From Botryllus schlosseri (taxonomy: Eukaryota), in assembly GCA_051294905.1 (NCBI GenBank), contig CM119372.1:39372001-39436000 (forward strand): a stretch of DNA of 64,000 nt, read 5' to 3'. How positions within the stretch are numbered: position 1 is the stretch's first letter; every line of letters begins with the position of its first letter. Position numbers and translations under genes: made by a program. This document shows positions 36,474 through 62,403 of the stretch, one piece after another. The notes beneath the pieces are model-generated. The model saw only the letters and a program-made list of their open reading frames with translations, was not told where the DNA came from and did no database searches.

Positions 36474-39400
36474 AGTAGTATATAGGATCGCTCGTGACCT
36501 GGCTGGGGTTCTTATGGGCGGGGTGGCGATTCGCCTGGAAACCCGGGGTGGCGATTCGTCTTTTTTGCTATAGGCTGCGGCCGCGATTCGCCATGTGTTC
36601 TTATGGGTGCGGTCGTGATTCGCCTTTTTTGCTATAGGCGGTGGCGGTGATTCGCCTGAAAACCCGGGGTGGCGATTCGCCTTTTTTGCTATAGGCTGCG
36701 GCCGCGATTCGGCATGTGTTCTTATGGGTGCGGTCGTGATTCGTACTTTCAGGCATCTCTCGCGCGGTGTTGAATAGTCACCAACAATAACCGCACAAAC
36801 GGAAACGTGGCTTGTTGTGAGGATTTACGCAGTGCGTGCGACAGACGGCGATTCGAATATCAACAATAGTCGCGTTCGCAAACTACCACTTCAAAAAGAT
36901 GTGAAATATTTGTAAAATCCTACGATCGCTCACAAGATACCACTTCCGGCATATCGATCCATCACTCAATACACAACCGAAGTTGAATTGTAATTGAATG
37001 CGTAAATTTATCACCTCGACATCAAAATTCGAAAACAACAACTTGACGCTTTATGTTCTCACTCTAATTTCATGATAAGTGTAATAAGTGCCGAATAACA
37101 GATACATCACCGGCGAGTCTTGAATACCAACAAATTGTCACTTATTTCTATTTTAGCCGTAATCCTTTGTGAAGTTAACGCTTATTCAAAAAGGTGTGAA
37201 ATAGTTTGCAAAACCCCGCGATCACTGACAAGATAATGTCTCGGACATACCCATCTTTCACGACTTGGTGTCATAGCCATACCGATCGCTCACGCGGTGA
37301 AATTTTAGTAATCAGTTTGTCACAGAACTAGATTTCACTGGTAAGATTTAATAAATACCGACTATCAGAACCATCAGTGTGGGTAACTTGAATAGCAACA
37401 AATTGTCACTTATTTCCGACGGGAAATTCACTAAACCGCAGTACATTGTGTGATTTTGAAAAACAGATGTTTGCGCTTGCGTTTTGATATGTGCGACCCA
37501 CTAACTACATCCGTTTTGCGAACACGGCTTGTTGTGAGGATTACGCGCGCGCCCTATATTTCGAATGACCTGCGCGCTGAATTTTTTCCTGTGCAGCTGT
37601 TTCGTGCTACAGTATACTGGACTATCGTATCGATTATTACACTAATCCAGTCAGTGCGAAATAGTTTGCTAAATCTAGTAATCAGTCGCAAGGTGTTACT
37701 TAAGTAATTAGTTTACCATAGAACCGGCGTAGCCGGTGATTCGAATACCGACAAATTTTCACTTATTTCTGACCCAACCCTAATCCTCTGTGAAGTTGAC
37801 GCTTATTCAAAAAGGTGTGAAATAATTGTAAAATCCTAATCCGAAACCGATTATTTTGACTTTGGCGTAGTGTGCATTGAAATAGGATTGATAAACATGA
37901 CTAGCAACTTCCCCACAGTCCCGTTTCGATATTATACACACATTGATTTGAAACAAGTAATGTAACATTACAACTCTATTCCCGATCCAGCTTTCCGTTT
38001 GTCAAAGAGACATTTTAACATCTTACCATACTCAAAAGAATTATTCACAACATTAACAAGTGTTTAAAATCTAGTTTTCACTTACTTGGCTATATCAGTA
38101 CAACTCGCAAACTTGAATTAATTCATCTGGTTGTATTCATAGGACCGATAATTTTTATCCAACTGTAAAGGTCGTTATACTATTCTGTAAGACAGAGTAT
38201 TTACTAATCGGTGCATATACGATTTGACTTGGGCATATTATATTTTGAGTATACGAGATTTGAGTGTCAGAACAATAACTGAGAAATAAATTATCACAAT
38301 TGAATCCATATACGACAGCGTGAATTAAATTATCACAATTGAATCCATATACGACAGCGTAAAAGATATTGGGATGTCAGCATCTCTTTACGGTTATAGT
38401 TACAACCACATTACCTAATTTACCCGACCAACTCGTCATGATCATTCCCGAAATCAACACAAACATGACTACTGACTTGAGTCAACCACAAAACAGCATC
38501 AAGTTTTAAATCCACTTGTAGCTTACGGCTTATTTGAATGCGGGTTATGTTTTGTTGTAATTGAGTGTACGGAAATAGTATTACGTCTCGACATCTCACC
38601 ATCTTACCATACTCAAAGAGTCAACCACGAAAACATTGTCAAGTAAATCCGTTTGTAACTTACCCAACCAACTCAAACAGTATCAGTATGGAAAACAGCC
38701 AAACATACACGAATCCATACAATCACTAAAACCTAAAATCCATAACAAGCTTGGTTGTATTCATATCCCTACACATCTTTTTTTATTCAGCTTGAAAAGT
38801 CGTTACTATTCTGTAAGATAGAGGAATTACTACGCGGTATATTCTGCAAGACAAACTAATTACTACTCGGTATATTTTGTAAGACAAAAGTAATTACTTC
38901 TCAGTGTCGGCGACTTGAGATTAACATAATATGCTTGAGTATACGAGATTTGAAAGTCCGACCAACGTAGTTGAGAATTCATTTCTTACAATCGAACAAT
39001 GGTGTTATATTCAAAGTTATCATGCTGTGAACATAAGATTGACACATTGATTTGACATATGAGATTTGTAATAGTTGATCATTACTTTATTATTAAATTA
39101 TTTGCGTTAATTAGACCCGGCGTTGTGGTAAATGTTATGACAGCAACAAACTTTTCAGTATCAATGTTATTAACATATTAAGCTGTAAAACTATGTATGT
39201 CTGAAATGTTCTTGATAGGAAAATTACTCCACCTTGGTAAAAATCACTCTGCGTATTGCGGATATCAGAAAATATTTCCAGTACCTAAGACTAAAGATGA
39301 AACGACAATTTCGTTTGCTGATTAACAACCGGTACAATACTTTATCATCATAATCCGCGGTGAGAATTGAAACACTTTCGCGCATTACTCGGTGTCAAGA

Positions 39401-39652
39401 TATCACACTAGGTGAATTGACATACACTGTAAAAAAAAACATGGGTTTTTGTCATGGAAATGACATGACTTGCTCTGAGTCATGTTAATTCCATGAAAAC
39501 ACCGACATGACTTTAAAATCTCATGTTGACATGACAAAAACTTCCATGTTAGACATGATAAAGGCATCCATGTCCATGGTTATCAAGTAAGAGTATCACG
39601 TTGAGCTTCAGTGATATCATCATAATTATCATCATCATCGTCACTGAGAGAA

Positions 39653-39938
39653 AGGGAGAGAGAGAGAGAGAGAGAGGAGGGGGGAGGGAGTGAGAGAGAG
39701 GAGGGGGAGGGAGAGAGAGAGAGAGAGGAGGGAGAGGAGAGAGAGGAGGAGGGAGATATATAGAATAGAGCAGAAAGAAGAGAGGCGGAGAAAGAAGGGA
39801 AAGAGAGCATAGAGAAAGGAGAGAGATAGAGAGGGGGAGGGGGAGGGGAGGAGAGAGAGAGGGGGGAGATATAGAGAATAGAGCAGAAAGAAGAGAGGGG
39901 GAGAAAGAAGGGAAAGGGAGCATAGAGAAAGGAGAGCA

Positions 39939-39969
<31 letters not shown>

Positions 39970-40006
39970 GTAGAGAGAGGGGAGGAGAGAGATAGGGGGG
40001 AGAGAT
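39653..40006 (+). repeat. Polypurine (GA-rich) low-complexity tract with internal duplication
   Basis: Almost pure A/G; segment agaatagagcagaaagaagaga...gagcatagagaaaggaga occurs twice. Confidence 0.92.
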
Positions 40007-40850
40007 ATCAGACTTATTCTCGTTTGCACCATTGAGATGCTTTGACGATTGAGATGCGATAACCATGCTATCCCTGAATGCTGAACGTTGAGCCGGATAG
40101 CCACGGATACCAGTTTTTAGTCTTCGGTCTGACATGGCCGAGAATTGTTCATATGACCTACCGATCAAGAAGCAGGACGCTTTACCATTTCACTATATCG
40201 CTATTACAGCTGAGTGACAAGTAAATATCGTTACATCCTCACAGGATATATTGCAACACACAAATAGCTACATCATCGCACTATAGAGTATGACTCTATA
40301 ATCGCACGCAAACATAGGCGTTCGGTTACGGAGCCATAATGACTCCGGACTATCTGGTTACAAGACCAGTCATGCGTACGGTGTAGCGTTCGATTCAAAA
40401 GGATTGGCATAAAGAGTAAGTTTGATAGAGTTGGTCATTTCATGGGTTGGCTTAGTCAAAGTTGCAAAGTTTATTGCTTGTTGCCGTATTAAGCCGTGGA
40501 TTGGATGGTAAGTATTGATATATTTATTGTGCCTGCCTTCGTTGTAATATATCCGCCGAATCTGCAATGCGTCACTGGGTATAGTCGAACCTTTAGCAAC
40601 TTAGCCGTATTCAATCAGATACCGGTATATAGCGGTATATACTGCCGAGCGGCTGCACATAGTGATCAAAGTTTACTGCGTATCCATTTGTATGTAGTTG
40701 TAGATCATATGGAAGTTGGTAATGCGTTAGTAGTTCGAGACGTTACACAAGCTCCCTTGCTTTTATTTTGTACCGTACTGGGCAATGTTCAAGTGAAGTA
40801 TTTATCCAACTGGAGGAATATTCATCCTGAGGTGATTGAAAAAATTTGAG

Positions 40851-40935
40851 CTTTAAAAAATATGGGATGTCATGCTATACTCGATCCTTTGATTCAAGAT
40901 TTGAAAACCCTAGAAACACAAGGAACTGATGTAAA
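40851..40935 (+). pseudogene. EnSpm/CACTA transposase fragment
   Basis: KYG/CHAILDPLIQDLKTLETQG (frameshifted) matches remembered animal EnSpm motif KYGxxxILxPLIxDLxxLExxG. Confidence 0.6.
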
Positions 40936-42031
40936 TTTGTATTTTACAGATATACATACTGCAGTTGTTAGTAATATTACTCCTGAGTTATTTGTCACAT
41001 TGAAAATGAGGCTGCCGGAGATCATGAACAAGTGATTACAGTGGATCACAGATCTGAGATAGCTGAAACTGTGAGAACTGTATTTCGGAGTAATGTCGGG
41101 GACAGTATATTCAACTTCTATATTCCGACGAGGCATTTGCCTCGAATGATCTCTCGGCAATTCAAGATAAAGGACTAATCTTGACAGACGATGAAAGTGA
41201 GTAATTATTACCCCAAATAAATTGGTAGGCTACTATACTAGGATTACACTCTGAACGCATATTGGAATAGTTGTTTCGGGGTTCCGAAGGAAACTTATTC
41301 CAAATATGACCTTGGTTTTTTCAAATTGTCTCTGGTTTTGGTGATGTCCCATGGGGTTATTTTGACAAACGTCACATTTTCACTGTATGGTCCAGATAAA
41401 AAAAGAAATTAGATCTACTTGTTATACTGAACACTGTATTAAATCAAAATGCAGTAAAATAATTATATTAATGGTAATTGGATTTATCATAATTGGAGTT
41501 TTTTATAGATTATTTCTTGAGAGGCCACAGCCACATCATATTTAGAGTGGTGCCCCTTTAATTTCAACCTTGCAATCCATTTCTTACAAGCACGTTGCTA
41601 TTTTTTGCGCTGAAGAGATATTTACATGGCTAAGCCAAGTATTATCGCGACTCTTCTATACTTGTGCAGAGAAAGCTGTTTGCAAAGTCAACACATCTAC
41701 CCTTCCGAAGACGAACGTAGCGTCGACGAGCATCAAAAGGGAATAAGTCAGAGAGGGTGCCAGATGAAGAGATGCTGCAAGATAGAATGAGAAGAACTTT
41801 TAAATCACGCCGCGACAGTGTCGTAAATGGAATTGAAGATATACCCAGTTTTTACCCATGCTCCCTTGGTAGGTACAGCCTAACGCAGTGGTTTCAAACA
41901 CGACACTGCCATGATCGAGTCAACCCGCTACTTTGCAACAAACCCACAAAGAGTTCGTTTTTCAGAGTGCTATGATAGTACAAAACAAACTACATATATA
42001 TATTGCTGAAATAATTTACGATAGTTGTGAA

Positions 42032-42203
42032 CAATGTTCCCTCTAATTTTTGACGAGTCTGCACAGACCCTTGGACAACAGTGCGTAACGACTAGAAAAA
42101 GGTCATTACTGCGGATTTTTTGTGCGCAACTTAGATATTCTGTGCGCAGAGACCGTGTCAACACTGCGCATTTGCGCACGTTAGCAGCTTAGAGGGAACA
42201 TTG
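42032..42203. mobile_element. Short hAT MITE (family of 14042-14235)
   Basis: TIR caatgttccctctaa / ttagagggaacattg; TSD gttgtgaa / gttgtgac. Confidence 0.88.
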
Positions 42204-42710
42204 GTTGTGACATATCCTCCACCACAAGCCCGACTTGTGCTAAATTGAGACTACTGATAGTACTAAAGGCTCCTGCAGACGAACTTGATTAATTAGCTAT
42301 GATGTAAATCTGTCACAATGTTCAGATTTTGGAAGAAGGGAAAATATGTTGCCTGAATCAAGCCTGCTTGGATGTTGACTTGACCTCGAAGATTTTGGAA
42401 AAGACTTGGAGCTCTGCACTCAGTCTCCTGCAACCGCAAGAAATTCTGATAGAAATACAAAAAGTTATGGGTAAGTAAGAGACTTTTGAAAATTTAGTTA
42501 GTTGGCGGTCAATATCTGTCGAGTATAGTTCTAGTTGCGGATTGTGAAAAATGATTAGTTCAAATTTTAGTTGCGGGTTTCGGGAACTGAGTAATTCTTG
42601 TTTCAGCTTCGCAGTTGTGTAGGTGTTCAATAACTGAAAAACACATGTCATCGCGAGGGTGGGTTAAAATCGAATAGCCTACCTGAGTGATTCCACAGAT
42701 TTAGTTAGAT

Positions 42711-43837
42711 CAGGGGTGGGCAATTATTTTTCGCTGCAGGCCACTTCAGTAATAGAAAATAAGTTGGAGTACCGACTGCCGAGCCTACATATTTAGCTAT
42801 ATTCTCCAGTGTATTGATTTAATTTATAAATGGAAAGCAGTGAATTACATTGTTAATAAATACGTCTCCGTGGATGTGTTGATATTAGATAGCCTATTGA
42901 GAAAAGTACGGTTAATTAACGAAATGAAAATTTATATTTATTTTCCCTCGTGATTCAAGATAATGTTAAACATGATACATTTTGAATTCTCTGTAATCCA
43001 GGCTTTTATATCAAGACATTAAAAGGAAGGCTATATCCTAACAGTTGCAACTTGATGAAATTGACATATATATATCGGTTTCGGCCGACATGTGGCGGTA
43101 CTTTTGGTCAAGGTTTCCTCGCCGTTGAGCTTTTTTGCAGCACACTTCGCACAGTCAATTGTTAGCCGAAACGTCATTGTCAACGTCGTGGTGTGTCCTG
43201 ACGCGCTAACGGCCGACGCCGAAATGCTGATCTCTCTAAATGAGCTGTTTTTGCGGGTAGAGTGGTACCCATATTATTATCAAAACATCTTTGTTTGAAT
43301 TTGAATGAAGTTTCATAAATTATAGGATTTATGTCCATTTACGAAGTAATTTTTGATGCTTCGAGGTCGGGCCCTCTCCATTTGAGGGGTCTGGGATGCG
43401 GCAGTTGCGGCCCTGTGTTTAGTGCTCCATACCTTCTTTGCATTTCAGCTTTCGACATTCTTTTTATGATATGCCCATTCACCCTTTATGTATGATGAGG
43501 TCTCCGTCAACACGCGCACTGATAATGGTAACAAAGAAGGTCTGAACCAAACTATATGGAAGGAGTAACTTATTGTGACTAATTGTTACGACTTTGCTAC
43601 ATTGACTTGATTTTAAATCTGGATTACGCATACAAGCTTGGGAGGGACGTAGGCTATGTAATCGCGATATATTATTGAGCAGGTTTCAAAGTAAATCAAT
43701 TTCCGTTCCAGCTCAGTTCATCCAGCTTATGGTTTTATTCCACGCAGCAATATTCAAAAGTACGTTTTATGTTTTTAATTTTAAATAATGGCCACGCGTG
43801 CTTCTCAAAATAGCGGGGCTCACTTTGCCCATGGCTG
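42711..43837. mobile_element. hAT (Charlie-like) non-autonomous element
   Basis: caggggtgggcaa / ttgcccatggctg; TSD agttagat / agttcgat. Confidence 0.75.
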
Positions 43838-44303
43838 AGTTCGATGTATTATAGTTCGTTAGTTGCGGATTCATAAAAGTCATTGATTACTTGGTAGGAT
43901 ATTATAGAAATAGGGTATTTCAAGTTGCCGATTTTAAAAACTGTCTGGTTCCTAAGGCAATGGTAAAATTTGCATATTTTTTGCCACGCTCATATTTGCA
44001 GTTCACATTACACTAACATTAACTGCATTCATTTATTGTAACTGCATTTATTTAATTTTTAAAACGTTTTTTTTTCTCGAGTGTTTCACTTGAGCTGATC
44101 TCTCACTTCTCATTCAGGTAATCAGAAATTGGACTGGGTGGCCGGCATCCCCACCATTTTCAATGAACGCTTCGGCAGCTTCCTGATTGTGGATAAGGTG
44201 AGTTGTTGATAATGGCCAAAACGGGTTTGCTCAATAATACTACAAGACAATACTACAATAATAATAAAAACAGTTGGTTCGTGGTACAGAACTTGAAGAT
44301 AGC

Positions 44304-45226
44304 TTTCAATACAACATCCATTGTAGTAAAATATTTATTCAACTCGAAGACTTTTCGGGTGCCTCTTTTCAAGAGTTAACGGCACACTGAAGGGATTTAA
44401 ACAGAATGAAAAGCAAAACCAGAAAGCCCAAGTATGATGCAACAATCAGAAATTACATACCATGAAGTCTGCAATGTAACAATGGCAACAATAACAAACT
44501 TGAAGTGTACGGTACTAGAAACATATCAATTTGAAACTAAACAATAACAAACACGAATTAGAACGCGCGAATGGGAAATTTGTAAGTTATACAGAAAATC
44601 TTTTTGTTTACATAAAATAGGCTTGGTCAATTGGATGATTGTTCATTCTAGGGCTTTCAAATGAAACAAGGATCTGCCTCGCGCAATGACAGTAAACATT
44701 TGGCCATTATAATTTTGAGCACAAGAAGGGTTCTCACTTAAATGTTGGCCGAAGCGTATGCTTGGTAATCGTCGTAACAGTCGGTTTTGGCGGCTGATTT
44801 ACATTGTCGTGCGAACTCCGTACGGTCATTTGCGCAAGTTTTTGAGCGAATCAGATCCTTGTTTCATTTGAAAGCCCTAGAATCAATAATCATCCAATTG
44901 ACCAAGTCTATATTATGTAGACAAAAAGATTTTCTGTATAACTTATAAATTTCCCATTATAATGCGTTCTAATTCGTGTTTGTTATTGTTTAGTTTCAAA
45001 TTGATATGTTACTAGTACCGTACACTTCAAGTTTGTTATTGTTGCCATTGTTACATTGCGGACTTCATGGTATGTAATTCTGATTGTTGCGTCATACTTC
45101 GCCTTTCTGGTTTTGCTTTTCATTCTGCTTAAATCCCTTCAGTGTGCCGTTAACTCTTGAAAAGAGGCACCCGAAAAGTCTTCGAGTTGAATAAATATTT
45201 TACTATCAATGGATGTTGTATTGAAA
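44304..45226. mobile_element. Penelope-like 3' end as an inverted duplication (arms 44304-44676 and 44852-45226)
   Basis: Minus strand reads FGQHLSENPSCAQNYNGQMFTVIARGRSLFHLKALE*TIIQLTKPILCKQKDF (Penelope endonuclease C-terminus); each arm has a hammerhead-like motif. Confidence 0.8.
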
Positions 45227-48200: not shown

Positions 48201-48379
48201 CGATCATAATAGCAATTTCATTTGCCACCCCTTCGTAATTGTACACGCACGAAAAGTATATTGTACAACTCGGCAACTACGTTTAACAAGACCAATCACA
48301 CTACCAGCGTTGAACACAAGATACCTACCCAAGTCAAAAATATCATACGGGTTTGGACAACTGACGTTTACCTGTGTAA

Positions 48380-48900
48380 AATTATCATTTTCACTTGGCG
48401 ATCTATCCTTTCCTAGAGTAACAAACCCTTGTCGTTTACAAATCTATTTTTTTCCTACAGCAAAAAACTATTTTCACTTGGAAAAATACTTTTACCTAGA
48501 GTAACTAATCATTTTCTTTTAAAAATATATTTTCTCTCTGGGTAACAAACCCTTTTCGTTTGGAAAACTATCATTTACCTGAGTACCAATACCGTTTTCA
48601 CTTGGCAGTCCGTCGTTTACCTGGCTAAACATATCATTTTCACTTGGAAATCTATTTTTTCCCAGAGTAAGAAACCTTTTTCACTTTGAAATCTATTTTT
48701 TCCCTGGGTAACAAACCTTTTTCGCTTGGAAATATATTTTTCCCTGGGTTACAAACCTTTTTCACTTGGTGGTCCGTCGTTTACCTGAGTAAAAATATCA
48801 TTTTCCTTTGGGGGATCTGGCGTTTACCCAGTGTAACAATACATTTTCTCTTGGTCATCTAGCTTTTCCTAGAGTAACAAAACCATTTTCATTTTGAAAT
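48380..48900 (+). repeat. About 40-bp degenerate tandem repeat in the left arm (mirror at about 56250-56600)
   Basis: Units ttttcacttggaaatctattttttccctgggtaacaaacc; copy number differs between arms. Confidence 0.85.
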
Positions 48901-50489: not shown

Positions 50490-53400
50490 GATGAAGAATA
50501 CCAATGGTTAGGCAATGCAAAACAAGTCCTGGAAGACAACACTGGTACAGTAGACAATGAAACACATCTTGGGCTGCATTTCATGCCAGCCGACAGCCAC
50601 CGGATGCTAGAGTCATCTGCCCCACGTCGCTGCTTCCACTCTTCCTGGAAAGTGCCCACACTGTGGCCATGATCCGGCATTCAATGGACATTGTGAAGAA
50701 AGCTGTAGAACACCTGAATCCAGTGGTCACCTTGGATCAGCCACTGTTCGCTTTGGCTAAGCAGATACAGTGGAAGTGGCCAGAGAGTTATGGTGAAGAC
50801 CACATGCTGGTGATGTTTGGTGGTCTCCACATAGAGATGACGGCACCGAAAACACTGGGGAACTGGCTGCAAGGGAGTGGTTGGGTGCAAGCACTTGTGC
50901 AAGCTGAGATTGCGACAGCAGGGACTGCAGACTCATTTCTGCGAGCATCTCATGCGTTGCGCACAAGAAGAGCACATCAAGTAACTGCAACAGCACTGTA
51001 CAGTGTACATCCTGCAAGACCATGTCTACAACCACTACTGTCTGGGAGAAACCAGGGATGCAGAGGACCTTCCCGCGTTTGAAGACTGGTGTCGCCAGAG
51101 ACGAGACAACATCCCCCAGTTTCGCTACTGGGCAACTGTGCTGGAAATAGAACTGTTGGTTCTAGTGTATGTGCGTTCTCTCAGGCAGGGATCGTTGACG
51201 ATGTACTTCGATGCTCTGACAGAGCTAGTCACCTGGTTCCACGCACTAGATCATACCCACTATGCTAGGTGGATACCAGTGCACCTGAAGGACATGGCCG
51301 AACTCACTACCAAACACCCAGACGTAGCCAGGAAATTCAGTGAAGGCCATTTCACAGTTCAGAAACCACAGAGGGTGTTCTCTTCAATCCCGATTGACCA
51401 GGCACATGGGCAAAATATTGCCTGCATTAAAGGAGAAGATGGCACAGTTGGGCTCACTAACAACTCTAGTGCCCTTCGTCGCTGGATGGTTGCGGGACCA
51501 GAAGTTGCTAGGGTTATAGAAAAATTCCAGGACGGGAACCAATACTGGAGACGGCAAACAGCAGACACACGTCATCACGATCAGACGCCAAGTGTACAGG
51601 CCTCATTTGTGGAAGATGTTCGCTTTCTCGTCGGTGTTATAGAGGCGATGGGCAACCCATTCGAGGAGGAGGGTCAGGATCTAGTCGTGCTGGACACAAA
51701 GGACATCGCAGGTCCTGCTGTCGTGGAGACCGTGATGAATGTGAAGAGGATTGGCCAAGAGCAGTTCGAGGCTTTCACCAGAGAGTGTCTGTTGGACAGA
51801 ACAAAGGCAGTGGACGACCCTATTCCTCGTAACAAGCTGAAGGTGTTCAACACTTCAACCCCAAGAAACCAGAGCAAAGGTCAGCAACAGCTCGCCTCTG
51901 TCAAGAATGACCATGAACTCTTCGCACGCCTGTACATTAGCTGCCAGATGAGGGATGTAAACCTTGAGGAGTTCTTTCGTCACGAGAACCAGGCATGTCC
52001 TCCTGCACTGTCTTCTGGTGGAAACCTCTTAACTGGTACCAAGAATGATCTCATCACATGCTTGGAAGAAGTCTCCGACCCCAAGACAGAGACTCCTGTC
52101 ACTACCTGTATAGTGCTTGATGGAGCGTCCATAGTCCAGATGCTGAATCCGGCTGCATTAAAGACCTTTGAAGAGTATGCACATCAGATCTTCATCCCAT
52201 ATATGTCTACGAAAATGAAAACAGTGTCACGCCTGGATCTGGTCTGGGATACTTACCTTGCTGATTCACTGAAAGGTAGTACAAAGGTAGTGCAAAGCGG
52301 GGACAAGGCGTGCGGAGACGTGTGGTGGCCGCCGCATCCATACCAGGAAACTCGCAAAATTTCCTACGAGTGGACAGCAACAAGACCGAGCTGTTTAAGT
52401 TCCTGTCAGCAGCTCTCATGGAATGGTTTGAACAGGAGGACAAGCAACTGGTCATTACTGATGGAGAGTCAGTACTCAGCAAGCCACTACTACCAGATCT
52501 GACCTCACTCGCCCCATGCAACCATGAAGAGGCCACAGTCGGATGTTGCTGCATGCATCTCATGCAGCCAAGCATGGACACCACTCAATAGTCATCCGGA
52601 CTGTAGACACCGATGTTGTGGTACTGGCAGTGTCCGTGGTACAGGAGTTGCAACCAGAAGAAGAACTGTGGCTGGCATTCGGAACAGGCCAAAGATTCCG
52701 ATACCTAGCAGCACACGAAATTGCAGCTGGACTGGGACCAGAAAAGGCTCGTGCACTGCCAATGTTCAACGCTTTAACTGGATGCGACACTGTGTCTAGT
52801 TTTGCCAGACATGGTAAGAAGACTGCGTGGGCAGTCCGGACGGTACTGCCAGAACTCACTGAGGCGCTGCTGCTGCTGTCCTCCGCACCACGTGACATAC
52901 CAAATGATGCAATGTGCATCATCGAGAGGTTTGTGATCTTGTTGTATGATCGAACCAGCAAATGCACGGACATTGACACGGCCAGGAGGAAACTCTTTGC
53001 GAGGAAGAACGATGTGCAGCTGATCCCTCCAACGAAGGCATCTTTAGAGGAACATGTCAAGAGGGCAGTGCATCAAGGTGGATATGTGTGGGATCCAGAG
53101 TTGGGATCAAGTCACTACCTTCGAGTCACGAGTCATTTCGAGTCATTGCACATTTTGACTCGAGTCAAGTCAAGTCAATCGATTTTCGAAGGTGACTCGA
53201 GTCAAGTCAAGTCAGTCGATTTTTGGAGGTGACTCGAGTCAAGTCGAGTCAAGTCAAGTCAAGTCACGAGTCAAGTCACAATTCAAGTCAAATTGAATTT
53301 TCGAGGTATGAGGCGTGATTACGTCATTGTATTTTGCTAGCTGTCTGAAATACAGATTGAGTGGTCATTGATTTTGAACCGATGAACGAATATAGAGTTA

Positions 53401-54295
53401 AATATACACACAAGTAAGGCGCTGTATCGCTCACATATAAGTAGAACTAATAAACTACGCAAGTAATTGCACAGCCTCAGTTTATAGTTACCAGCCAAAA
53501 TAAAGAAACAAATTGATAAGATGCAATACATTACCCTTTTGCATATTGATATGATACAATTCGACCCCGCGCCAATGGTTGAGGACTATGTAAACTATTT
53601 TCGAATTCAATTTCAACAAAACAAGAGGTTTGGTCAAGTTAAGAACGCAGAACAGAAATAGACATTTTGCTATTAAATTACTTTACTATACTATAGTTTA
53701 CGACAGCGTAGGCTGTAAGCTTCGATCACTTCGTTTGCGATCAATATATTTGTGAGAGAACAATGGAGGCTCAGTAAATCGCACGATCATTGAATGATTG
53801 GTCGCTCTCACGGGTTACACCAGCGTTGCGCGAACAATCCGAACATATGCAAGATAGTGATTTTCATCGACACCGATTACTTGATGACTTGAAATTGACT
53901 CGTGGATTTTGCTCCGAGTCACGAGTCAATCCACATTTCTGATACGCCGAGTCAAGTCAAGTCAAGTCAAGTCATTTTAGCAAAGTGACTCGAGTCAAGT
54001 CAAGTCATACGAAAAAGTGACTCGAGTCAAGTCATGACTCGAGTCATCCCAACACTGGTGGGATCAGATATTGCTGCCAGCACCTGAGCTCCCTCCACCA
54101 ACCAACTGGGGTTGGTCAATGATTGGAGGACAGTACACACCATACTGGACCAGGCTACCTGAGGCAGCTCGCAGCTGCATTGAGCTGATTTCTTGCAAGT
54201 GCCAGAAAGGGTTTGTGAAACGCTGCAAATGCAAGAAGGCTGGCCTTCAGTGCACAGCCCTCTGTGTGTGTGACGGGGACTGCACAAGACGATGA
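50490..54295 (+). pseudogene. Academ protein remnant: transposase core, XPG/FEN1-like nuclease, C-terminal Cys (CXC) finger
   Basis: ORFs 50663-51082 (LDQPL, FGGLHIEM, GSGW), 51003- (HYARW, DQAH, GPE), 52310-52591 (NHEEA), 52543- (TVDTDV, LTGCDTVS), 54071-54295 (CKC..CKC..CTALCVC..C); several frameshifts, N-terminus missing, MITE insertion. Confidence 0.85.
53096..54057. mobile_element. hAT MITE with (GAGTC/AAGTC)n repeats inserted in the Academ ORF
   Basis: TIR cagagttggga / tcccaacactg; perfect TSD gtgggatc; excision restores GGYVWDQILLPAPELP. Confidence 0.93.
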
Positions 54296-54639
54296 GTCCA
54301 CAACATACATGTACTTGTGGCAGTGCTGAACTTGTTAATATGACACTGTTTATATACGCGTATCCTCAGTACCGATATATACCTAGCCTCAGATACCTAT
54401 CATACCAGACCATTGTAGAATGTCAGTATACACCTAGCCTCAGATTTTAGACCATGTAGCATGACAGAATTGTACCTAAGACATTTACAGACATAAGACT
54501 TTCACACCCATTTAACATGCTTGCATAAAATCATTCTTTTCAAAGTATCGAGTTCAATCAAATATTTCCTAGATAAGTTGTAATTACAATTATACAACAG
54601 ACTATGAAAGATAACATCAAGTTGGAATTCGTACCATTG

Positions 54640-54830
54640 GATTGTGCATTGGATTAGGTTTGTGCATTGCATTTGATTTAGATTTTCATATTAGAATTTT
54701 TGATTTGTGCATTTGATTTAGATTTGTGCATTAGAATCTTAGATATGTGCATTTGATTTAGATTTGTGCATTTGATTTAAATTAGTGCATTAGAACTGTG
54801 CACTGGTTTGAGCATTGGATTGTGAAATTG
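54640..54830 (+). repeat. Degenerate gatttgtgcatt repeats inside the Academ right end
   Basis: Multiple tgtgcatt / gatttagattt units. Confidence 0.7.
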
Positions 54831-56621
54831 GTACCATTGGATTCCTTGACCCAAAAAACATACATTTTGACACCAAAATGAAGTCAATAGTAGCATTTGA
54901 CCCAGACATAATCGCAAATGTAGATTTCAAATGGCGGCCATTTTGAAATCCAATATGGCGGACATAAAGAGAGAATTCCGAGTGGCTCAATATCTGAAAA
55001 TGTTCGCAACATGTTATTATACATGTGTGCCAAATTTGGTGCTTGTATCACAAAATGCACAATAGGTTTGCTATGCTGCCCCACTACCTTACGAAAGTGT
55101 GTTTTATGATTGCGTGTGAAATCACGAGGTAGTGTTCTATTGTGGTGTACGATTGCAGTCTTCATTCCACAGAAACATACCTTATTGGATCACAATATCA
55201 GTCCGACATTTGCACGATATTTATCCGGAGTCGTTATGTGGGAGTAGCGACATCCATTGATCGTGACTGAAAGACTGATCGCAATCATTTCGAGCACCGT
55301 ACTTCGATAGTTCACCTAGATCAAACGCTGTAGTCTCAGCAGAAAACTTCGGTGTCGACAACACGATGGATATTGACCGATGTTTCTAATTGATCTGGGT
55401 GGTCAGTCTACAGATAGGGTCATGACTATCTTGTAATGTTACAACACGATAACACCATCGAATAAATCAGTGAACGGTGTCGAAATATCGATGTAATAGC
55501 GCGGACTCAGAGTCATTGCAATGTGGCTTATTGGTATTGTTATCGGGTGACATTCGATCTGCATCAAAATTACCGGCTATGATAATGTCTGTGGATCGAA
55601 GGCTTACTCCCCGATGTTTGTATACCAACACATTGCATGCAATGTCACACACCTCCATTTACGCGTATACTGTTGTGGGCAAACAAGCGCGACGTATGTC
55701 TGGATGGTATTTTTTCGTGGAATGTAACATGTTTACTTTGAATATTTTTCATTGGTTTATCGATTCAGAGTTGATATCCGGATCCGGTTACATACTTTAT
55801 CAGGGTTTCCGATTTCAAACTGAATGTCGAGACATACATTGACCAATAAAGACACAATATAGTAAACATGCGGGGGGGAAAACTCGACCTGGAATTGTTA
55901 TCGCGATGGGTGACATAAATCCAACCGTCTTCCGATCCCCGTTATCCACATACCAACCATCGTCGAGGAGGTGTTTTATTCAGACATTTTGACTCTGGAA
56001 AATCCAAAGCACGAACCCGGACATCGCAGAACTATCGAAGCCTATTGTCCAATTTTCCAAAAACATAAACGTCGATGTACAACAGCACATTGCATGTGGG
56101 TAACCGATGATTTTGATGGGTTGCATCAGCACAAGTGAATATGCGATTACACAAATGTATTGGAGTTGTTGTTGGTGTATATTTTGTCGCTATCCGTTGT
56201 AACAATATACAAAAATATCAAATTGTCAGGTGTGTTTGTCAGATTTCAAAATGAAAATGGTTTTGTTACTCTAGGAAAAGCTAGATGACCAAGAGAAAAT
56301 GTATTGATGTATTGTTACACTGGGTAAACGCCAGATCCCCAAAGGAAAATGATATTTTTACTCAGGTAAACGACGGATCACCAAGTGAAAAAGGTTTGTA
56401 ACCCAGAGAAAAATATATTTCCAAGCGAAAAAGGTTTGTTACCCGGGGAAAAAATATATTTCCAAGTGAAAAAGGTTTGTTACCCAGGGAAAAAATAGAT
56501 TTCCAAGTGAAAAAGGTTTCTTACTCTGGAAAAAAATAGATTTCCAAGTGAAAATGATATGTTTAGTCAGGTAAACGACGGACTGCCAAGTGAAAGTGGT
56601 AATTTTAAATAGGTAAACGTC

Positions 56622-56702
56622 GGGTTAGGGTTAGGGTTAGGGTTAGGGTCTAACCCTAACCCTAACCCTAACCCTAACCCTAACCCTAACCCTAACCCTA
56701 AC
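56622..56702. repeat. Head-to-head telomeric repeat block (TTAGGG)4 - (CCCTAA)8
   Basis: ggg(ttaggg)4 t ctaa(ccctaa)8 c; absent from the left arm. Confidence 0.95.
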
Positions 56703-59297
56703 ACAATCATGGTCATTAACTAACTTGCTCGGTCTAGATCAATGCAAAAGAGATGATTCGTTTTTTTGAAACCGTAGCGAAGACCACATGTAAATCGATG
56801 CGATAGACTTCTATCCCCTTACATTTAGTCGTGTCGTGTCCGTTTTAATATTTCTTGACTACATCGGAATGTCTATGTTGTAGAAAGTAAATACTTTTAT
56901 GGAGTTGTGTGTTTAATGAAAGCGATTGGTTACAAGTATGTGTTGGGGAAAGAAAATTTATTTTTCTGTATGTGACGAAATGAAAATAGATTCGTGGTTT
57001 TAATTGAATTGTGACTGTGTTGTTTTAATGCACTTTTCAACAGGTAGACTTGACACTGAACAACAATTCGACTCACAAAAAATGTTTGTTGTATGATTTG
57101 TCACCGGTGTGCAAAGGGTTTGGAATATTTTTGATTTACTGCTATGGCATTGACATAACCCTCTGAAAGTGAGTATGCTTTTCTTTCACGAAAGTTTACG
57201 TGGCTCTGTTGTAATAAATTTGTGTTAACTAAACTCGGATGGATACCACAATTGTGCTGGCCTTACACCACCAATCATTGTACAGGTTTGTAGCATGAGC
57301 GAATATTTTCGTGCATCATGAATATCTTTCGTATACACTTAGTATGAAATGAGATGTGTGGAACAATAATTAGTGTCGTACAAAGTGTTGTGTTTGATTG
57401 CTTACTTTTTATCAATGTCTTTGTGATGTTAAAAGACGACTAAGTTTTCATTTACATTAAGCGGAGAAACTCATGTAATAAATTTTACTCATTTGAAAAT
57501 CGACTCGCGTGAAAATACCGATCAATGGAGTAGCAATATCAATAAGGGTGGTATATTATTTTTCGCGATATGCACCAACCTTCTAAGTATAACTTTTCAA
57601 AAATTTATCATGTCATAGAAAAGTTGGTTTTTATGAAATCGAAACAAATATACTTCGATTATCACGACAAAGGAATTGAGATCAACGCAGTATTTCGAAA
57701 TGGTATGTTCTGCAATCGGTAAATATCAAACTGTGCATACAACTCGGTTAGGTAAACGACCCAGTTACAAGTCGGATGTATTTTTGATGTACAGATGGCA
57801 GTCTGATGATGTAAAGCTCAACCACTCTAGCGATTCGAAACAATTGTACTTCGATTATTATGATGATGGAAATTACGATCAACGGAGTATTTCGAAGTGA
57901 CTGTGTATCGTTCGGTATGTTCACCAATCGCTAAATGTCGGTTAATTAAACGATACAAATGACAGCTTGATGATGACAAAGCTCAACCACGCAAATGTGT
58001 TCATTGCAAAGTATTTGACACAAACAAAATACCGAATGGAGACCATCACATTGGTTTCATTTCGAGTGAGTGAAAATTGTTTTCTGTTGGCCTGGTAGGA
58101 CACATTTGACAAACATCGTGCACATTGTATCTTCGTGATGGTAACGACTTTCAGCGGCTTGGTTTCATGTCGGGAATTATTATTTGGGGGTTCAAAAACA
58201 ATCAATACTACAAATGAACAACAATGCAAAACACGTTTAGCAAATAACAGTGTGGCAAGTACTTTTTCGATATTACGATTGTTGTGTACCAGACACTTCT
58301 AGTTGAATTGAATGCATCGAACAAACATATCACAATTTACTTTTGTAATGATCAAAGTATGTGAAATGGTGCGAACGGATTAGGTATTATTCAAGCGGCG
58401 GTATGTCAATTCACCTAGTGTGATATCTTGACACCGAGTAATGCGCGAAAGTGTTTCAATTCTCACCGCGGATAATGATGATAAAGTATTGTACCGATTG
58501 TTAATCAGCAAACGAAATTGTCGTTTCATCTTTAGTCTTGGGTACTGGAAATATTTTCTGATATCCGCAATACGCAGAGTGATTTTTACCAAGGTGGAGT
58601 AATTTTCCTATCAAGAACATTTCAGACATACATAGTTTTACTGCTTAATATGTTAATAACATTGGTACTGAAAAGTTTGTTGCTGTCATAACATTTACCA
58701 CAACGCCGGGTCTAATTAACGCAAATAATTTAATAATAAAGTAATGATCAACTATTACAAATCTCATATGTCAAATCAATGTGTCAATCTTATGTTCACA
58801 GCATGATAACTTTGAATATAACACCATTGTTCGATTGTAAGAAATGAATTCTCAACTACGTTGGTCGGACTTTCAAATCTCGTATACTCAAACATATTAT
58901 GTTAATCTCAAGTCGCCGACACTGAGAAGTAATTACTTTTGTCTTACAAAATATACCGAGTAGTAATTAGTTTGTCTTGCAGAATATACCGCGTAGTAAT
59001 TCCTCTATCTTACAGAATAGTAACGACTTTTCAAGCTGAATAAAAAAAGATGTGTAGGGATATGAATACAACCAAGCTTGTTATGGATTTTAGGTTTTAG
59101 TGATTTTATGGATTCGTGTATGTTTGGCTGTTTTTCATACTGATACTGTTCGAGTTGGTTGGGTAAGTTACAAACGGATTTACTTGACAATGTTTTCGTG
59201 GTTGACTCTTTGAGTATGGTAAGATGGTGAGATGTCGAGACGTAATACTATTTCCGTACACTCAATTACAACAAAACATAACCCGCATTCAAATAAG

Positions 59298-59820
59298 TAG
59301 GGCTGGGCACAATGATTCGAGTACTCGAATCTGAATCGAGTATTAATTTCAATGATTCGAGTCGAGTAGTAAAATACGATTTTTTCGAGTACTGAAGGTA
59401 TATGCTCCACGCAACTGAAAATTGATTTACTAACGAGAATTATAGTTTTGATACTATTTTTTCACTGAGGAAGCCCGATAACCTCGATTGGCCGTGTCGC
59501 AGCATACCAGGCATAGTACAAAGCTACGAACTACAAAGCTACTGGAAATAACACATTTCTGAAGTCATGATTATCCCACAACATTGTCAAGAAGTGCAAT
59601 GAAATCGGTATGGTCGAAAAAAATACCGAAGTATATTTAATGTGATGGATAACAGGCATTATGTTCTTTGTGGTGGCATAAAAGGTATATATTTAAACTT
59701 CGACATGGTACATTCTATTGTGACGTCATAAGGAGTGATACTCGAATACTCGACTCGACTCGAAGCATATTACGTGATTCAGAATCGAATCACTCAGGTA
59801 CTCGATTTTGCCCAGCCCTA
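59298..59820. mobile_element. hAT MITE (TAGGGCTGGGC family) in the right arm only
   Basis: TIR tagggctgggca / tgcccagcccta; perfect TSD caaataag; single copy at left-arm empty site 38529-38536. Confidence 0.95.
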
Positions 59821-62079
59821 CAAATAAGCCGTAAGCTACAAGTGGATTTAAAACTTGATGCTGTTTTGTGGTTGACTCAAGTCAGTAGTCATGTTTGTGT
59901 TGATTTCGGGAATGATCATGACGAGTTGGTCGGGTAAATTAGGTAATGTGGTTGTAACTATAACCGTAAAGAGATGCTGACATCCCAATATCTTTTACGC
60001 TGTCGTATATGGATTCAATTATGATAATTTAATTCACGCTGTCGTATATGGATTCAATTGTGATAATTTAATTCTCAGTTATTGTTCTGACACTCAAATC
60101 TCGTATACTCAAAATATAATATGCCCAAGTCAAATCGTATATGCACCGATTAGTAAATACTCTGCCTTACAGAATAGTATAACGACCTTTACAGTTGGAT
60201 AAAAATTATCGGTCCTATGAATGCAACCAGATGAATTAATTCAAGTTTGCGAGTTGTACTGATATAGCCAAGTAAGTGAAAACTAGATTTTAAACACTTG
60301 TCAATGTAGTGAATAATTCTTTTGAGTATGGTAAGATGTTAAAATGTCTCTTTGACAAACGGAAAGCTGGATCGGGAATAGAGTTGTAATGTTACATTAC
60401 TTGTTTCAAATCAATGTGTGTATAATATCGAAACGGGACTGTGGGGAAGTTGCTAGTCATGTTTGTCAATCCTATTTCAATGCACACTACGCCAAAGTCA
60501 AAATAATCGGATTAGGATTAGGATTTTACAATTATTTCACACCTTTTTGAATAAGCGTCAACTTCACAGAGGATTAGGGTTGGGTCAGAAATAAGTGAAA
60601 ATTTGTCGGTATTCGAATCACCGGCTACGCCGGTTCTATGGTAAACTAATTACTAAAGTAACACCTTGCGACTGATTACCAGATTTAGCAAACTATTTCG
60701 CACTGACTGGATTAGTGTAATAATCGATACGATAGTCCAGTATACTGTAGCACGAAACAGCTGCACAGGAAAAAATTCAGCGCGCAGGTCATTCGAAATA
60801 TAGGGCGCGCGCGTAATCCTCACAACAAGCCGTGTTCGCAAAACGGATGTAGTTAGTGGGTCGCACATATCAAAACGCAAGCGCAAACATCTGTTTTTCA
60901 AAATCACACAATGTACTGCGGTTTAGTGAATTTCCCGTCGGAAATAAGTGACAATTTGTTGCTATTCAAGTTACCCACACTGATGGTTCTGATAGTCGGT
61001 ATTTATTAAATCTTACCAGTGAAATCTAGTTCTGTGACAAACTGATTACTAAAATTTCACCGCGTGAGCGATCGGTATGGCTATGACACCAAGTCGTGAA
61101 AGATGGGTATGTCCGAGACATTATCTTGTCAGTGATCGCGGAGTTTTGCAAACTATTTCACACCTTTTTGAATAAGCGTTAACTTCACAAAGGATTACGG
61201 CTAGAATAGAAATAAGTGACAATTTGTTGGTATTCAAGACTCGCCGGTGATGTATCTGTTATTCGGCACTTATTACACTTATCATGAAATTAGAGTGAGA
61301 ACATAAAGCGTCAAGTTGTTGTTTTCGAATTTTGATGTCGAGGTGATAAATTTACGCATTCAATTACAATTCAACTTCGGTTGTGTATTGAGTGATGGAT
61401 CGATATGCCGGAAGTGGTATCTTGTGAGCGATCGTAGGATTTTACAAATATTTCACATCTTTTTGAAGTGGTAGTTTGCGAACGCGACTATTGTTGATAT
61501 TCGAATCGCCGTCTGTCGCACGCACTGCGTAAATCCTCACAACAAGCCACGTTTCCGTTTGTGCGGTTATTGTTGGTGACTATTCAACACCGCGCGAGAG
61601 ATGCCTGAAAGTACGAATCACGACCGCACCCATAAGAACACATGGCGAATCGCGGCCGCAGCCTATAGCAAAAAAGGCGAATCGCCACCCCGGGTTTTCA
61701 GGCGAATCACCGCCACCGCCTATAGCAAAAAAGGCGAATCACGACCGCACCCATAAGAACACATGGCGAATCGCGGCCGCAGCCTATAGCAAAAAAGACG
61801 AATCGCCACCCCGGGTTTCCAGGCGAATCGCCACCCCGCCCATAAGAACCCCAGTCAGGTCACGAGCGATCCTATATACTACTTGTGCTACCATGCTAAT
61901 GTGTCCTCATGCTGTAGCGTCGCATGCTCAACTGTCGTTTTGCATTATGTCGCATGCTCATATGTCGGGCAACCACCCATTACGTATTGCATCTTTAGAC
62001 ACGGCTTGTTTCTCTTACACAGTTTAGTACCATGTGTCTAACTTTCTGTAATCATTGCAGCTGTCCGGTATAATGAAAT

Positions 62080-62403
62080 TTGTCACGTCTGGATGCTGAA
62101 CAGTTGGAGATTGAAATTGTAATACTGCAAAATCACCTCCATCTCGAAACCCACCAGGATGCAGCAAACATTTGGTGCCTTGTGGACATGGAAAAGTACA
62201 GCGGCGTATGCGCAGCAGCTATGAATGTTGCAAGCGTGTTTGGTTCAACTTATCGCTGTGAATCAGCCTTTTCGGACATGAACTTCATCAAAAACAAACA
62301 CATAACACGCCTCACTAATGTAAATCTGGAACACTCACTTCGTGTTGCAGGGTCAAGTTACATACCACTAGTTGATAGCATGCAATGCAAGGCTTCCCAC
62401 TGA
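62080..62403 (+). pseudogene. hAT (Charlie/Buster-type) transposase C-terminal dimerisation domain remnant; element right end at about 62741
   Basis: FGSTYRCESAFSDMNFIKNK...RLT..NLEHSLR motif; downstream end aaaggttggtgacccctg. Confidence 0.82.

Follow-up and report, generated by a model that had tools for sequence, protein, structure and literature searches.

The genome of Botryllus schlosseri contains roughly a thousand copies of a transposed, almost fully palindromic unit, which is probably a non-autonomous, gene-less mobile element mobilized by the resident Mavericks/Polintons. The window analyzed here, a stretch of 64,000 nucleotides (contig CM119372.1, positions 39,372,001 to 39,436,000 of the forward strand), holds one old, insertion-riddled member of this family.

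Structure of the copy in the window

The window copy is bounded by AGTAGT at 36474 and ACTACT at 61883, and its inverted match cannot be extended by one more base. As an earlier note on this DNA had stated, the ends are flanked by a 6-bp duplication with one mismatch (TATGCT/TGTGCT); since a 15-16-bp minisatellite surrounds the element (TRF), this target-site duplication (TSD) is weak evidence taken singly. Removal of three nested transposons (12.5 kb together) leaves a unit of about 12.9 kb that is 93% self-complementary, with a left arm of 6,168 bp, a right arm of 5,849 bp and a spacer of 922 bp. The earlier description of a unit of about 13 kb, more than 90% self-complementary, with arms of about 6 kb (6.2 and 5.8 kb here) and a spacer of about 0.9 kb is hence sound, except that two more nested elements have to be removed besides the one that it called an 'Academ'. 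The arms align, in inverted orientation, as 36474-38536 with 61883-59821 (99.3%), 38529-39425 with 59297-58401 (99.0%), 46422-48111 with 58403-56714 (98.9%) and 48637-49637 with 56513-55504 (96.9%), and the left arm terminates in TGACTCTGAGTC, like other class-A copies. The features are as follows (no strand is assigned except where + is given):

36474..61883, whole element as it stands, three nested insertions included, 25,410 bp
36468..36473, left copy of the 6-bp TSD, TATGCT, one base unlike the right copy
61884..61889, right copy of the TSD, TGTGCT, five of six bases matching the left copy
36474..36498, +, left terminus: (AGT)2 end motif, then conserved GATCGCTCG box; mirror at 61859-61883
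36499..36803, subterminal iteron region, 121-bp tandem units with GATTCGCC-type motifs (TRF); mirror at 61554-61858
36804..37418, left-arm copy of a 615-bp block common to all lineages
36474..39425, left arm, outer part (inverted-repeat alignment)
39426..46421, nested insertion 1, 6,996 bp, CACTG...CAGTG ends, TSD of 2-3 bp (TA or TAC)
46422..49637, left arm, inner part, holding a 41-bp tandem array at 48386-48902
49638..50145, spacer, first part
50146..55086, +, nested insertion 3, 4,941 bp, TAGTGGGGC ends, 3-bp TSD CCT
55087..55503, spacer, second part (spacer total 922 bp, duplicated CCT left out)
55504..59297, right arm, inner part, holding a 41-bp tandem array at 56358-56623
56625..56701, (TTAGGG)4...(CCCTAA)8 patch, replacing about 250 bp kept by the left arm at 48112-48362
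59298..59820, nested insertion 2, a 523-bp MITE, TAGGGCTG... ends, 8-bp TSD CAAATAAG
59821..61883, right arm, outer part, with the mirror of the 615-bp block at 60939-61553 (2 mismatches)

The first nested insertion has an internal 383-bp inverted repeat, its ORFs all fall short of 200 aa, and the right arm is free of it. The second, hAT-like judging by the length of its TSD, is missing from the left arm, and pieces related to it are located at 33347-33430 and 31208-31427. The third, the supposed 'Academ', has a subterminal inverted repeat of 237 bp and a gene in decay, about 840 aa long; it accounts for the ORFs of 505 and 234 aa, no Pfam family was found in it, and its empty site is visible in copies on C1 and C18. 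The telomere-repeat patch occurs in none of the nine other copies.

A dispersed family with arms evolving in concert

Further genomic copies with 6-bp TSDs, whose search had been set beforehand as a refutation test, are present: all nine other copies fetched (13.2-13.9 kb) show AGTAGT...ACTACT ends, perfect 6-bp TSDs and arms that are 99.7-100% identical within the copy. The family architecture comprises arms of 6.1-6.5 kb and a spacer of 0.9-1.0 kb, making up a 93% palindrome. The 20-nt terminal pattern AGTAGTWNNNNNGATCGSTC matches the 495-Mb genome 1077 times in forward and 1068 times in reverse orientation, well beyond chance, and the reversed control does so 0 and 3 times. Taking the first 100 ends of the list gives 38 pairs, 23 of which span 12.5-15 kb (median 13,735 bp), a clustering that is compatible with a size constraint without proving one. 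The (AGT)2 repeat is retained in 12 of the 12 elements read, and the TSD measures 6 bp in all 11 intact cases. Two short, non-palindromic derivatives also keep AGTAGT...ACTACT ends and perfect 6-bp TSDs, and palindromy would thus be unneeded for integration, unless the deletions post-date insertion.

Copies are 83-99% identical to one another over 40-98% of their length and show mosaic blocks between lineages, and the arm-spacer junctions have been passed down across deep lineages instead of being formed anew. In the outer 4 kb, differences between copies are almost always mirrored in both arms (mirrored versus arm-specific, 117:2, 171:2, 895:9 and 409:1), and so are indels. The two arms therefore evolve in strict concert across lineages up to about 17% apart (copies differ by 1-17%). 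The arms of the window copy are 0.7-3.1% apart, and three large heterologies (7 kb, 523 bp and the telomere-repeat patch) are each confined to one arm; since this drift and these heterologies persist, homogenization is not ongoing chromosomally in this copy. In-situ gene conversion between arms is possible in young, uninterrupted copies.

Coding capacity and conserved sequences

The palindromic element encodes nothing recognizable, in agreement with its earlier description as non-coding and non-autonomous. In the window copy, stop-to-stop ORFs of the arms and spacer reach 155 aa at most, a length not exceeded in any of four copies examined, and none of the 15 arm and spacer ORFs matches a Pfam family. 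This longest ORF has no match among 1.84 billion representative proteins, is disrupted by indels and stops in two of seven copies and lacks codon-position bias. No Rfam family was found in the element, nor any transposase ORF in ten copies.

Two other kinds of sequence stand out. The GATTCGCC-type motifs number 2-9 in the first 600 bp of ten copies, as against 0.3-1.1 per kb elsewhere, and iterons differ in number and sequence among lineages. The 615-bp block is 93-99% identical in all ten copies, whereas adjoining sequence is 76-88% identical or unalignable.

Co-resident Mavericks and related systems

The same genome harbors several 17-18-kb Maverick/Polinton families with a protein-primed polymerase, an rve-chromo integrase and an A32-like ATPase, and (AGT)2 ends with 6-bp TSDs occur in all three families whose ends were read. 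The published signature of vertebrate Mavericks is 5'-(AGT)2//(ACT)2-3' with perfect 6-bp TSDs (PMC8097293), which bears out the attribution of the palindromic termini to the Polinton/Maverick type. One 17.9-kb Maverick (C1:35758643-35776524) has AGTAGTATTATAC... ends and TSDs ggtttc/ggtttc, with accagt/accagt in a second copy of its family. The 17.9-kb element codes for an rve+chromo integrase (E 2e-13), an A32-like ATPase (21.8 bits as an ORF piece against a Pfam cut-off of 22.8, and slightly above the cut-off in the genome scan) and a 1310-aa protein whose homologs mostly carry PF03175. Among 356 first-look candidates for this protein, 35 loci were scored; they fall into four identity classes, and in the closest class the frame is open in all 11 copies. 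A profile scan of the genome for PF03175 gave no match, but this weighs little, because the scan was equally silent in control genomes and missed polymerases found otherwise. Two further families with AGTAGT ends and perfect 6-bp TSDs measure 17.2 kb (838-bp TIR) and 17.7 kb (140-bp TIR).

An autonomous Polinton sharing the ends of the palindrome had been anticipated, and the hexamer and TSD length are indeed the same, but only 6-11 terminal bases are in common. Blastn and tblastx comparisons of ten palindromic copies with one complete Maverick, and with the ends from two further families, revealed no similarity. The iterons of the three Maverick families examined are unlike those of the palindromic family, and a helper whose subterminal sequence matches did not turn up; none of four Maverick polymerase loci located below 25.7 Mb on C1 has a palindromic-type end closer than 20 kb. 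For the three Maverick families, the 19-nt ends specific to each occur 4-8 times per strand, versus about 1,070 for the palindromic family.

Since nothing detectable is shared beyond those terminal bases, the element would be of a satellite type and not a deletion derivative. The snap-back or defective-interfering origin once proposed for it finds no support, given this lack of similarity and the inherited junctions. Long inverted-repeat molecules occur in incomplete adenovirus particles, and classical snap-back defective genomes are built of helper sequence, which the palindromic family is not; its arm-spacer junction has persisted through deep lineages and is not made afresh. 'Satellite' hence fits better than 'snap-back deletion of a helper'.

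Apart from ends, TSDs and the possession of terminal inverted repeats, the family resembles Mavericks in its length, which falls inside the range of 12.7-24.6 kb given for intact vertebrate elements (PMC8097293). It differs in that genes for polymerase, integrase, ATPase, protease and capsid are all missing, in its 6.1-6.5-kb TIRs (46-1,447 bp in the published Mavericks) and in its thousand or so copies, against a published median of eight per vertebrate genome. Butterfly polintons are described with TIRs of about 2 kb that carry hexon and adenain genes, indicating that a Polinton end can be copied onto the opposite end over kilobases (bioRxiv 10.1101/2025.02.07.637071); these TIRs are nonetheless coding and a minor part of an autonomous element, whereas here the repeat makes up 93% of a gene-less one. 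Transpovirons, in turn, differ in encoding proteins (PMC5499653).

Proposed mobilization and alternative explanations

Insertion was very probably performed by a Maverick rve-type integrase, which would account for both the AGTAGT...ACTACT ends and the 6-bp TSD. For copying, we give an even chance to a route in which the helper's protein-primed polymerase would replicate the element as a linear molecule by way of a hairpin. Jumping-back, a step of protein-primed replication to which the end repeat of Mavericks has been tied (PMC8097293), would make use of the (AGT)2 repeat. Where an ordinary Maverick would form a short panhandle, the displaced single strand would here fold onto itself as a 6-kb hairpin, and a mutation in one arm would become a mismatch to be repaired or copied, so that every new copy would be born with identical arms. 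After integration the arms would drift apart, as in the window copy. Adenovirus and PRD1-type replicons are likewise linear, with a repeated end motif, and for protein-primed replicons a model already exists in which the displaced strand pairs with itself through its inverted ends, in a panhandle with a proposed role in restoring end homology (PMC11886824). The packaging repeats of adenovirus are also close to an end, at most a few hundred bp away (PMC5033970), like the iterons here. More speculatively, and with rather less chance of being right, the iterons and the 615-bp block might be cis signals for replication or packaging, and a capsid size limit might hold the length at 13-14 kb.

The foremost alternative, which we consider unlikely, limits the helper's part to its integrase, with no protein-primed copying or packaging, and attributes arm identity to chromosomal gene conversion between inverted repeats that lie close together, as in large genomic palindromes. 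Ends and TSDs need nothing beyond an integrase, past the termini nothing in cis was found to be shared with a helper, the short non-palindromic derivatives keep perfect TSDs, and the mosaic blocks speak of recombination acting on the family. Nonetheless, a thousand copies demand a replicative route, and cut-and-paste by integrase alone does not multiply copies; the window arms have drifted, their one-arm insertions neither lost nor copied across; and (AGT)2 is kept in every element read, although terminal bases suffice for an integrase.

Far less probable is a Foldback/Galileo-type cut-and-paste transposon of another superfamily (P, MULE or similar) that acquired Maverick-like ends by chance. 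The TSD of FB is 9 bp, the AGTAGT hexamer is the very one of the three co-resident Maverick families, and the ten copies hold no transposase ORF. Long, internally repetitive inverted repeats, copies consisting of little else and mosaic lineages are typical of Foldback-like elements such as Drosophila FB and Galileo, but Galileo has a P-type transposase, a 7-bp TSD and TIRs of 18-1,250 bp (PMC3573991), as opposed to 6 bp in 11 of 11 cases and 6-kb TIRs here.

Equally improbable is cryptic autonomy, through short or heavily spliced genes or through RNA, for instance a long hairpin transcript feeding small-RNA pathways. The conservation of the 615-bp block in all lineages does suggest that something in the arms is under constraint, and an RNA run shows low, patchy depth over the arm. 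Yet the block has no codon periodicity (29/29/24), no ORF above 55 aa and a fold energy not below that of shuffles, the longest ORF lacks homologs and is not intact in every lineage, Pfam and Rfam yield no match, and the RNA depth, 0-4 in most bins, is indistinguishable from read-through or DNA carry-over. Finally, although mis-assembly can produce perfect long inverted repeats, an assembly artefact or locus-specific inverted duplication is refuted by ten loci on nine contigs with differing flanks and TSDs, by 2,145 terminal motif matches, by elements nested inside one another on C1 and by arm-specific insertions in the window copy that each have their own TSD.

Like MITEs and other non-autonomous DNA transposons, the family shares only its ends with its putative mobilizer and outnumbers it, but MITEs measure tens to hundreds of bp and the palindromic elements a virus-sized 13-14 kb. 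In B. schlosseri, these elements are most likely parasites of the resident Mavericks.

Copies, ends and abundance of the palindromic family

The terminal 427 bp of the palindromic element at 36474-61883 (the window copy) find matches, in pairs, at many other sites of the 495.5-Mb assembly. The earlier note had proposed a search for further genomic copies with 6-bp TSDs, and the nine paired sites fetched as other copies bear out that proposal. All nine are 13.2-13.9 kb long, start with AGTAGT, end with ACTACT and are flanked by perfect 6-bp TSDs that differ between copies; their arms of 6.1-6.5 kb are 99.7-100% identical and enclose a spacer of 893-991 bp. The (AGT)2 ends recur in both of two short derivatives with single-arm interiors, bringing the perfect 6-bp TSD to 11 of 11 other elements.

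Short derivatives of the palindromic family
C1:19317205-19320506 (L042): 3,302 bp, TIR of 368 bp, perfect TSD, single-arm interior
C1:21592462-21599084 (L043): 6,623 bp, TIR of 878 bp, perfect TSD, single-arm interior

Either a few hundred terminal bp are enough for integration, or the deletions that gave rise to these derivatives postdate insertion.

Across the genome, the pattern AGTAGTWNNNNNGATCGSTC yields 1077 forward and 1068 reverse matches; the reversed control yields 0 and 3. Among the first 100 ends listed, 76 form 38 pairs and 24 are single; 23 of the 38 pairs span 12.5-15 kb (median 13,735 bp), and nesting of one element in another occurs among the longer pairs. By extrapolation from the AGTAGTWNNNNNGATCGSTC matches, we estimate that the family occupies about 10-15 Mb, roughly 2-3% of the genome. 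An assembly artefact is excluded. C1:16768420-16810257 holds a nest of three palindromic elements, whose spans are about 13.1, 14.1 and 14.7 kb once the inner ones are discounted. Two near-identical element ends also lie 3.1 kb apart at C14:14928358-14935034, the elements pointing away from the gap, and one of these ends adjoins a GATG-type microsatellite.

The window copy and its nested insertions

The window copy shows the same AGTAGT and ACTACT ends, at 36474 and 61883, and its flanks (TATGCT and TGTGCT) match at five of six TSD bases, as the earlier note had described in reporting a 6-bp duplication with one mismatch. Self-comparison resolves the element into four colinear inverted segments of 99.3, 99.0, 98.9 and 96.9% identity, broken up by three insertions that each have a TSD of their own.

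Features in and around the window copy
36000-36468 and from 61884 onward: surrounding minisatellite of 15-16-bp units (CATGCTCATGTGTCAC-like)
39426-46421: insertion in the left arm, 6,996 bp, ends CACTG...CAGTG, TSD TA or TAC
50146-55086: insertion in the spacer, 4,941 bp, ends TAGTGGGGC, TSD CCT
56625-56701: right arm, (TTAGGG)4 followed by (CCCTAA)8, head to head
59298-59820: insertion in the right arm, a MITE of 523 bp, ends TAGGGCTG..., 8-bp TSD

Without these insertions, arms of 6,168 and 5,849 bp flank a 922-bp spacer in a unit of about 12.9 kb that is 93% self-complementary, in close agreement with the previously claimed unit of about 13 kb (over 90% self-complementary, arms of about 6 kb, spacer of about 0.9 kb). 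The absence of long ORFs was likewise correctly noted: the element proper has no ORF above 155 aa, and long ORFs (505 and 234 aa) are confined to the spacer insertion, the empty site of which is seen in two other copies. At the position of the telomere repeats, the left arm retains ordinary sequence of about 250 bp (48112-48362), and the telomere-repeat patch is present in none of the nine other copies. The patch has the appearance of a palindrome break that was healed by telomere-repeat addition at both ends and then rejoined. The three nested insertions, the decayed TSD and this repaired gap identify the window copy as old.

The 7.0-kb insertion in the left arm is non-coding; its interior includes an inverted repeat of 383 bp (44304-44686/44842-45226) as well as a GA-rich tract (39646-39992). 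A gene of about 840 aa, now decayed, lies in the spacer insertion. Its protein has 342 homologue matches, with up to 78-86% identity in fish and other close homologues in hagfish, sea spider, whelk, sea louse and sea urchin; this spread suggests horizontal transfer. No Pfam family scores above threshold in the protein or in five full-length homologues, and the protein otherwise yields a weak DUF6589 match and hypothetical clusters in the Atlas. The earlier note had called the spacer insertion an Academ, a label that stays tentative; the Academ superfamily is characterized by an Academ-type DDE transposase and 3-4-bp TSDs.

The 523-bp MITE belongs to an abundant family that is also represented at 33347-33430 and 31208-31427. 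The runs mapped to 55000-62100 include one true RNA run and, besides it, three contig runs labelled 'RNA?' that may be DNA. Most arm bins have a depth of 0-4 in the true RNA run, and the peak is about 25; depth is high only on the MITE, by far the most covered part, from the ends of which many reads continue into other loci. A read joint 59289>59821 represents the MITE-less form, as found in the left arm and in other copies. Two further, unrelated inverted-repeat pairs in the window (1269-1458/1695-1884, 190 bp, 94%; 33763-34158/34370-34747, about 400 bp, 79%) probably represent small elements of the foldback or MITE type.

Anatomy and coding capacity

Alignment of the ten copies, with no consensus built, reveals three zones. 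About 25 terminal bases are conserved and give way to a variable zone with GATTCGCC-type iterons, which number 2-9 within the outermost 600 bp, compared with 0.3-1.1 per kb elsewhere. The third zone is a 615-bp block (window positions 36804-37418, mirrored at 60939-61553) that is 93-99% identical in all ten copies, whereas the adjoining sequence is 76-88% identical or unalignable. Codon periodicity is absent from the block (variable columns 29/29/24), its ORFs do not exceed 55 aa, and it does not fold with unusual stability.

A profile search of arms and spacer for Polinton genes, as suggested in the earlier note, came back empty: Pfam assigns no family to any of the 15 arm and spacer ORFs. 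The longest (155 aa) is interrupted in two lineages and has no homologue by phmmer among 1.84 billion representative proteins. Inspection of ORFs, tblastx against a co-resident Maverick and Pfam disclosed no rve integrase gene in the palindromic copies, and by the same three approaches no genes for a double jelly-roll capsid, minor capsid, A32-type ATPase or adenain-like protease were detected. Rfam has no match in the element.

Lineages are mosaics of blocks that differ in relatedness, and spacers fall into two classes, one comprising seven copies (including the window copy) and the other three. The arm-spacer junction is constant within each class, so that the palindrome must be inherited rather than made anew at random break points.

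Co-resident Mavericks

Weak Pox_A32 matches led to a 17.9-kb repeat, C1:35758643-35776524, that has a 99% identical copy on contig C6, ends of the form AGTAGTATTATAC... and perfect 6-bp TSDs.

Genes of the 17.9-kb element and its left end
C1:35758643-35776524: rve and chromodomain integrase, E 2e-13
C1:35758643-35776524: A32-like ATPase, borderline Pox_A32 (on the ORF piece 21.8 bits, below the 22.8-bit cut-off; in the genome scan 23.9 bits)
C1:35758643-35776524: 1310-aa protein, homologues mostly carrying PF03175
L029:1388-1906, + strand: Bcl-2-family gene (PF00452), E 1e-18, adjoining the left end
L029:2399-2878, + strand: E2 ubiquitin-conjugating enzyme gene (PF00179), E 2e-48, adjoining the left end

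PF03175 is the protein-primed polymerase family. By its polymerase, integrase, ATPase, TIR, TSD and ends, the 17.9-kb element is a Maverick/Polinton; for a capsid there is only a sub-threshold match of the double jelly-roll type (E 0.15). The Bcl-2 and E2 genes are host-like accessory genes of the type found in large DNA viruses.

A polymerase search produced 356 first-look candidates, and the 35 loci scored form four classes by identity (about 99, 91, 67 and 61%), the first of which has an open frame in 11 of 11 loci. Representatives of the 67% class (17.2 kb, 838-bp TIR) and the 61% class (17.7 kb, 140-bp TIR) both have AGTAGT ends and a perfect 6-bp TSD. A genome scan with PF03175 gave no match; the same scan was silent in all control genomes and missed polymerases found by the other search, and hence provides no evidence of absence. 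The family-specific 19-nt ends of three Maverick families number only 4-8 per strand. The end matching the first class occurs five times forward and eight times reverse, fewer than the eleven polymerase copies that are 98-100% identical. Maverick ends thus appear to be exchangeable, and near-identical Mavericks seem to carry different termini.

Vertebrate Mavericks have been reported to bear an (AGT)2//(ACT)2 motif with perfect 6-bp TSDs, the repeated end motif being defined as 5'-(AGT)2//(ACT)2-3' or (AG)3//(CT)3 and tied to jumping-back in protein-primed replication (Barreat and Katzourakis, PMC8097293, in extract). In the same extract, length averages 16.9 kb and TIRs measure 46-1,447 bp, in contrast to the 6.1-6.5-kb arms seen in nine of nine palindromic copies. 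The earlier note had looked to an autonomous Polinton sharing the ends of the palindrome, and this expectation holds in part: AGTAGT ends and a 6-bp TSD are common to the palindromic family and the three Maverick families with ends read, but terminal identity goes no further than 6-11 bases, the longest match being AGTAGTATATA, with the 67% family. Subterminal iterons are specific to each Maverick family and unlike those of the palindromic family. Comparison by blastn and tblastx of the ten palindromic copies with a complete Maverick and with the ends of two further ones found nothing relevant; the matches obtained stem from an unrelated repeat, between the nested element at 50146-55086 and flanks outside the Mavericks. 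On C1 below 25.7 Mb, no palindromic-type end is found near any of four polymerase loci, and a helper Maverick with matching ends may exist among the other loci. With (AGT)2 ends, a 6-bp TSD and no Maverick genes, the palindromic family is thus a Maverick by its cis features and by none of the coding ones.

Concerted evolution of the arms

Copies are 83-99% identical to one another over 40-98% of their length. In four-way alignments of the outer 4 kb, the differences between copies are nearly always mirrored in both arms, and indels are likewise mirrored.

Differences between palindromic copies in the outer 4 kb (copy pair: mirrored in both arms; in one arm only)
C9a/C1: 117; 2
C5/C16: 171; 2
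C6/C11: 895; 9
C18/C9a: 409; 1

The arms of the window copy are 0.7-3.1% apart, and its heterologies (the 7-kb and 523-bp insertions and the telomere repeats) have been neither lost nor transferred to the opposite arm. On the simplest reading, the arms become identical in the making of a copy and drift thereafter in the chromosome; gene conversion between the arms of young, uninterrupted copies is a less probable alternative.

A mechanism consistent with production of identical arms can be put forward in steps of decreasing strength. Judging from its termini and TSDs, the family is very probably integrated by a Maverick integrase. Replication as a linear molecule by the terminal protein and polymerase of the helper is proposed, with about an even chance of being correct. 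The displaced strand would then fold into a 6-kb hairpin instead of a short panhandle. A panhandle with a proposed role in restoring end homology is an existing, unproven model for adenovirus and PRD1 (PMC11886824, in extract). A full-length hairpin would expose every difference between the arms as a mismatch, and could in this way give rise to mirrored substitutions. Packaging of the family is a more doubtful proposition. The packaging repeats of adenovirus are situated 220-400 bp from the end and must remain within 600 bp of it (PMC5033970, in extract), a position that resembles that of the palindromic-family iterons, and the 13-14 kb of the palindromes amount to 75-80% of the helpers' 17.2-17.9 kb.

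Taken as a whole, these elements might be satellites of Maverick viruses, namely gene-less, linear replicons of 13-14 kb that are copied by the terminal protein and polymerase of a helper through a snap-back hairpin, packaged and integrated, although we regard this complete scheme as rather unlikely. Under such a scheme, the full-length hairpin would keep both halves identical, the helper would package the replicons owing to their preserved minimal genome size and their own subterminal signals (iterons and invariant 615-bp block), and its integrase would then insert them.

Relation to other systems and significance

Long TIRs have been described in other elements. Butterfly polintons possess enlarged coding TIRs of about 2 kb (preprint 10.1101/2025.02.07.637071, in extract), and Galileo/Foldback elements have long repetitive TIRs of up to 1.25 kb and a 7-bp TSD, Galileo belonging to the P superfamily (PMC3573991, in extract); the latter TSD differs from the 6 bp found in 11 of 11 palindromic-family elements. 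Searches of the full-text literature, with Repbase and subscription journals outside their reach, brought up no gene-less, near-fully palindromic, high-copy element of the Maverick type, and 'non-autonomous polinton' appeared there for Tlr1 only. The palindromic family may nonetheless have been annotated previously.

To our knowledge, the replication, excision and DNA packing of Mavericks/Polintons are known almost only by analogy. An abundant gene-less element with cis requirements alone marks the sequences that matter, the candidates here being the (AGT)2 termini, GATC box, iterons and invariant 615-bp block, and its mirrored substitutions constitute indirect evidence for a self-paired single-strand intermediate. 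Thousands of perfect 6-kb inverted repeats are also potential sites of breakage and rearrangement, and the gap healed with telomere repeats in the window copy may be a scar of such breakage. More generally, virus-like Mavericks would have high-copy parasites of their own. If the satellite reading is true, with about 1,000 copies against tens of helpers, Maverick functions in this genome would be used mainly by the palindromic elements, which might also slow the spread of Mavericks.
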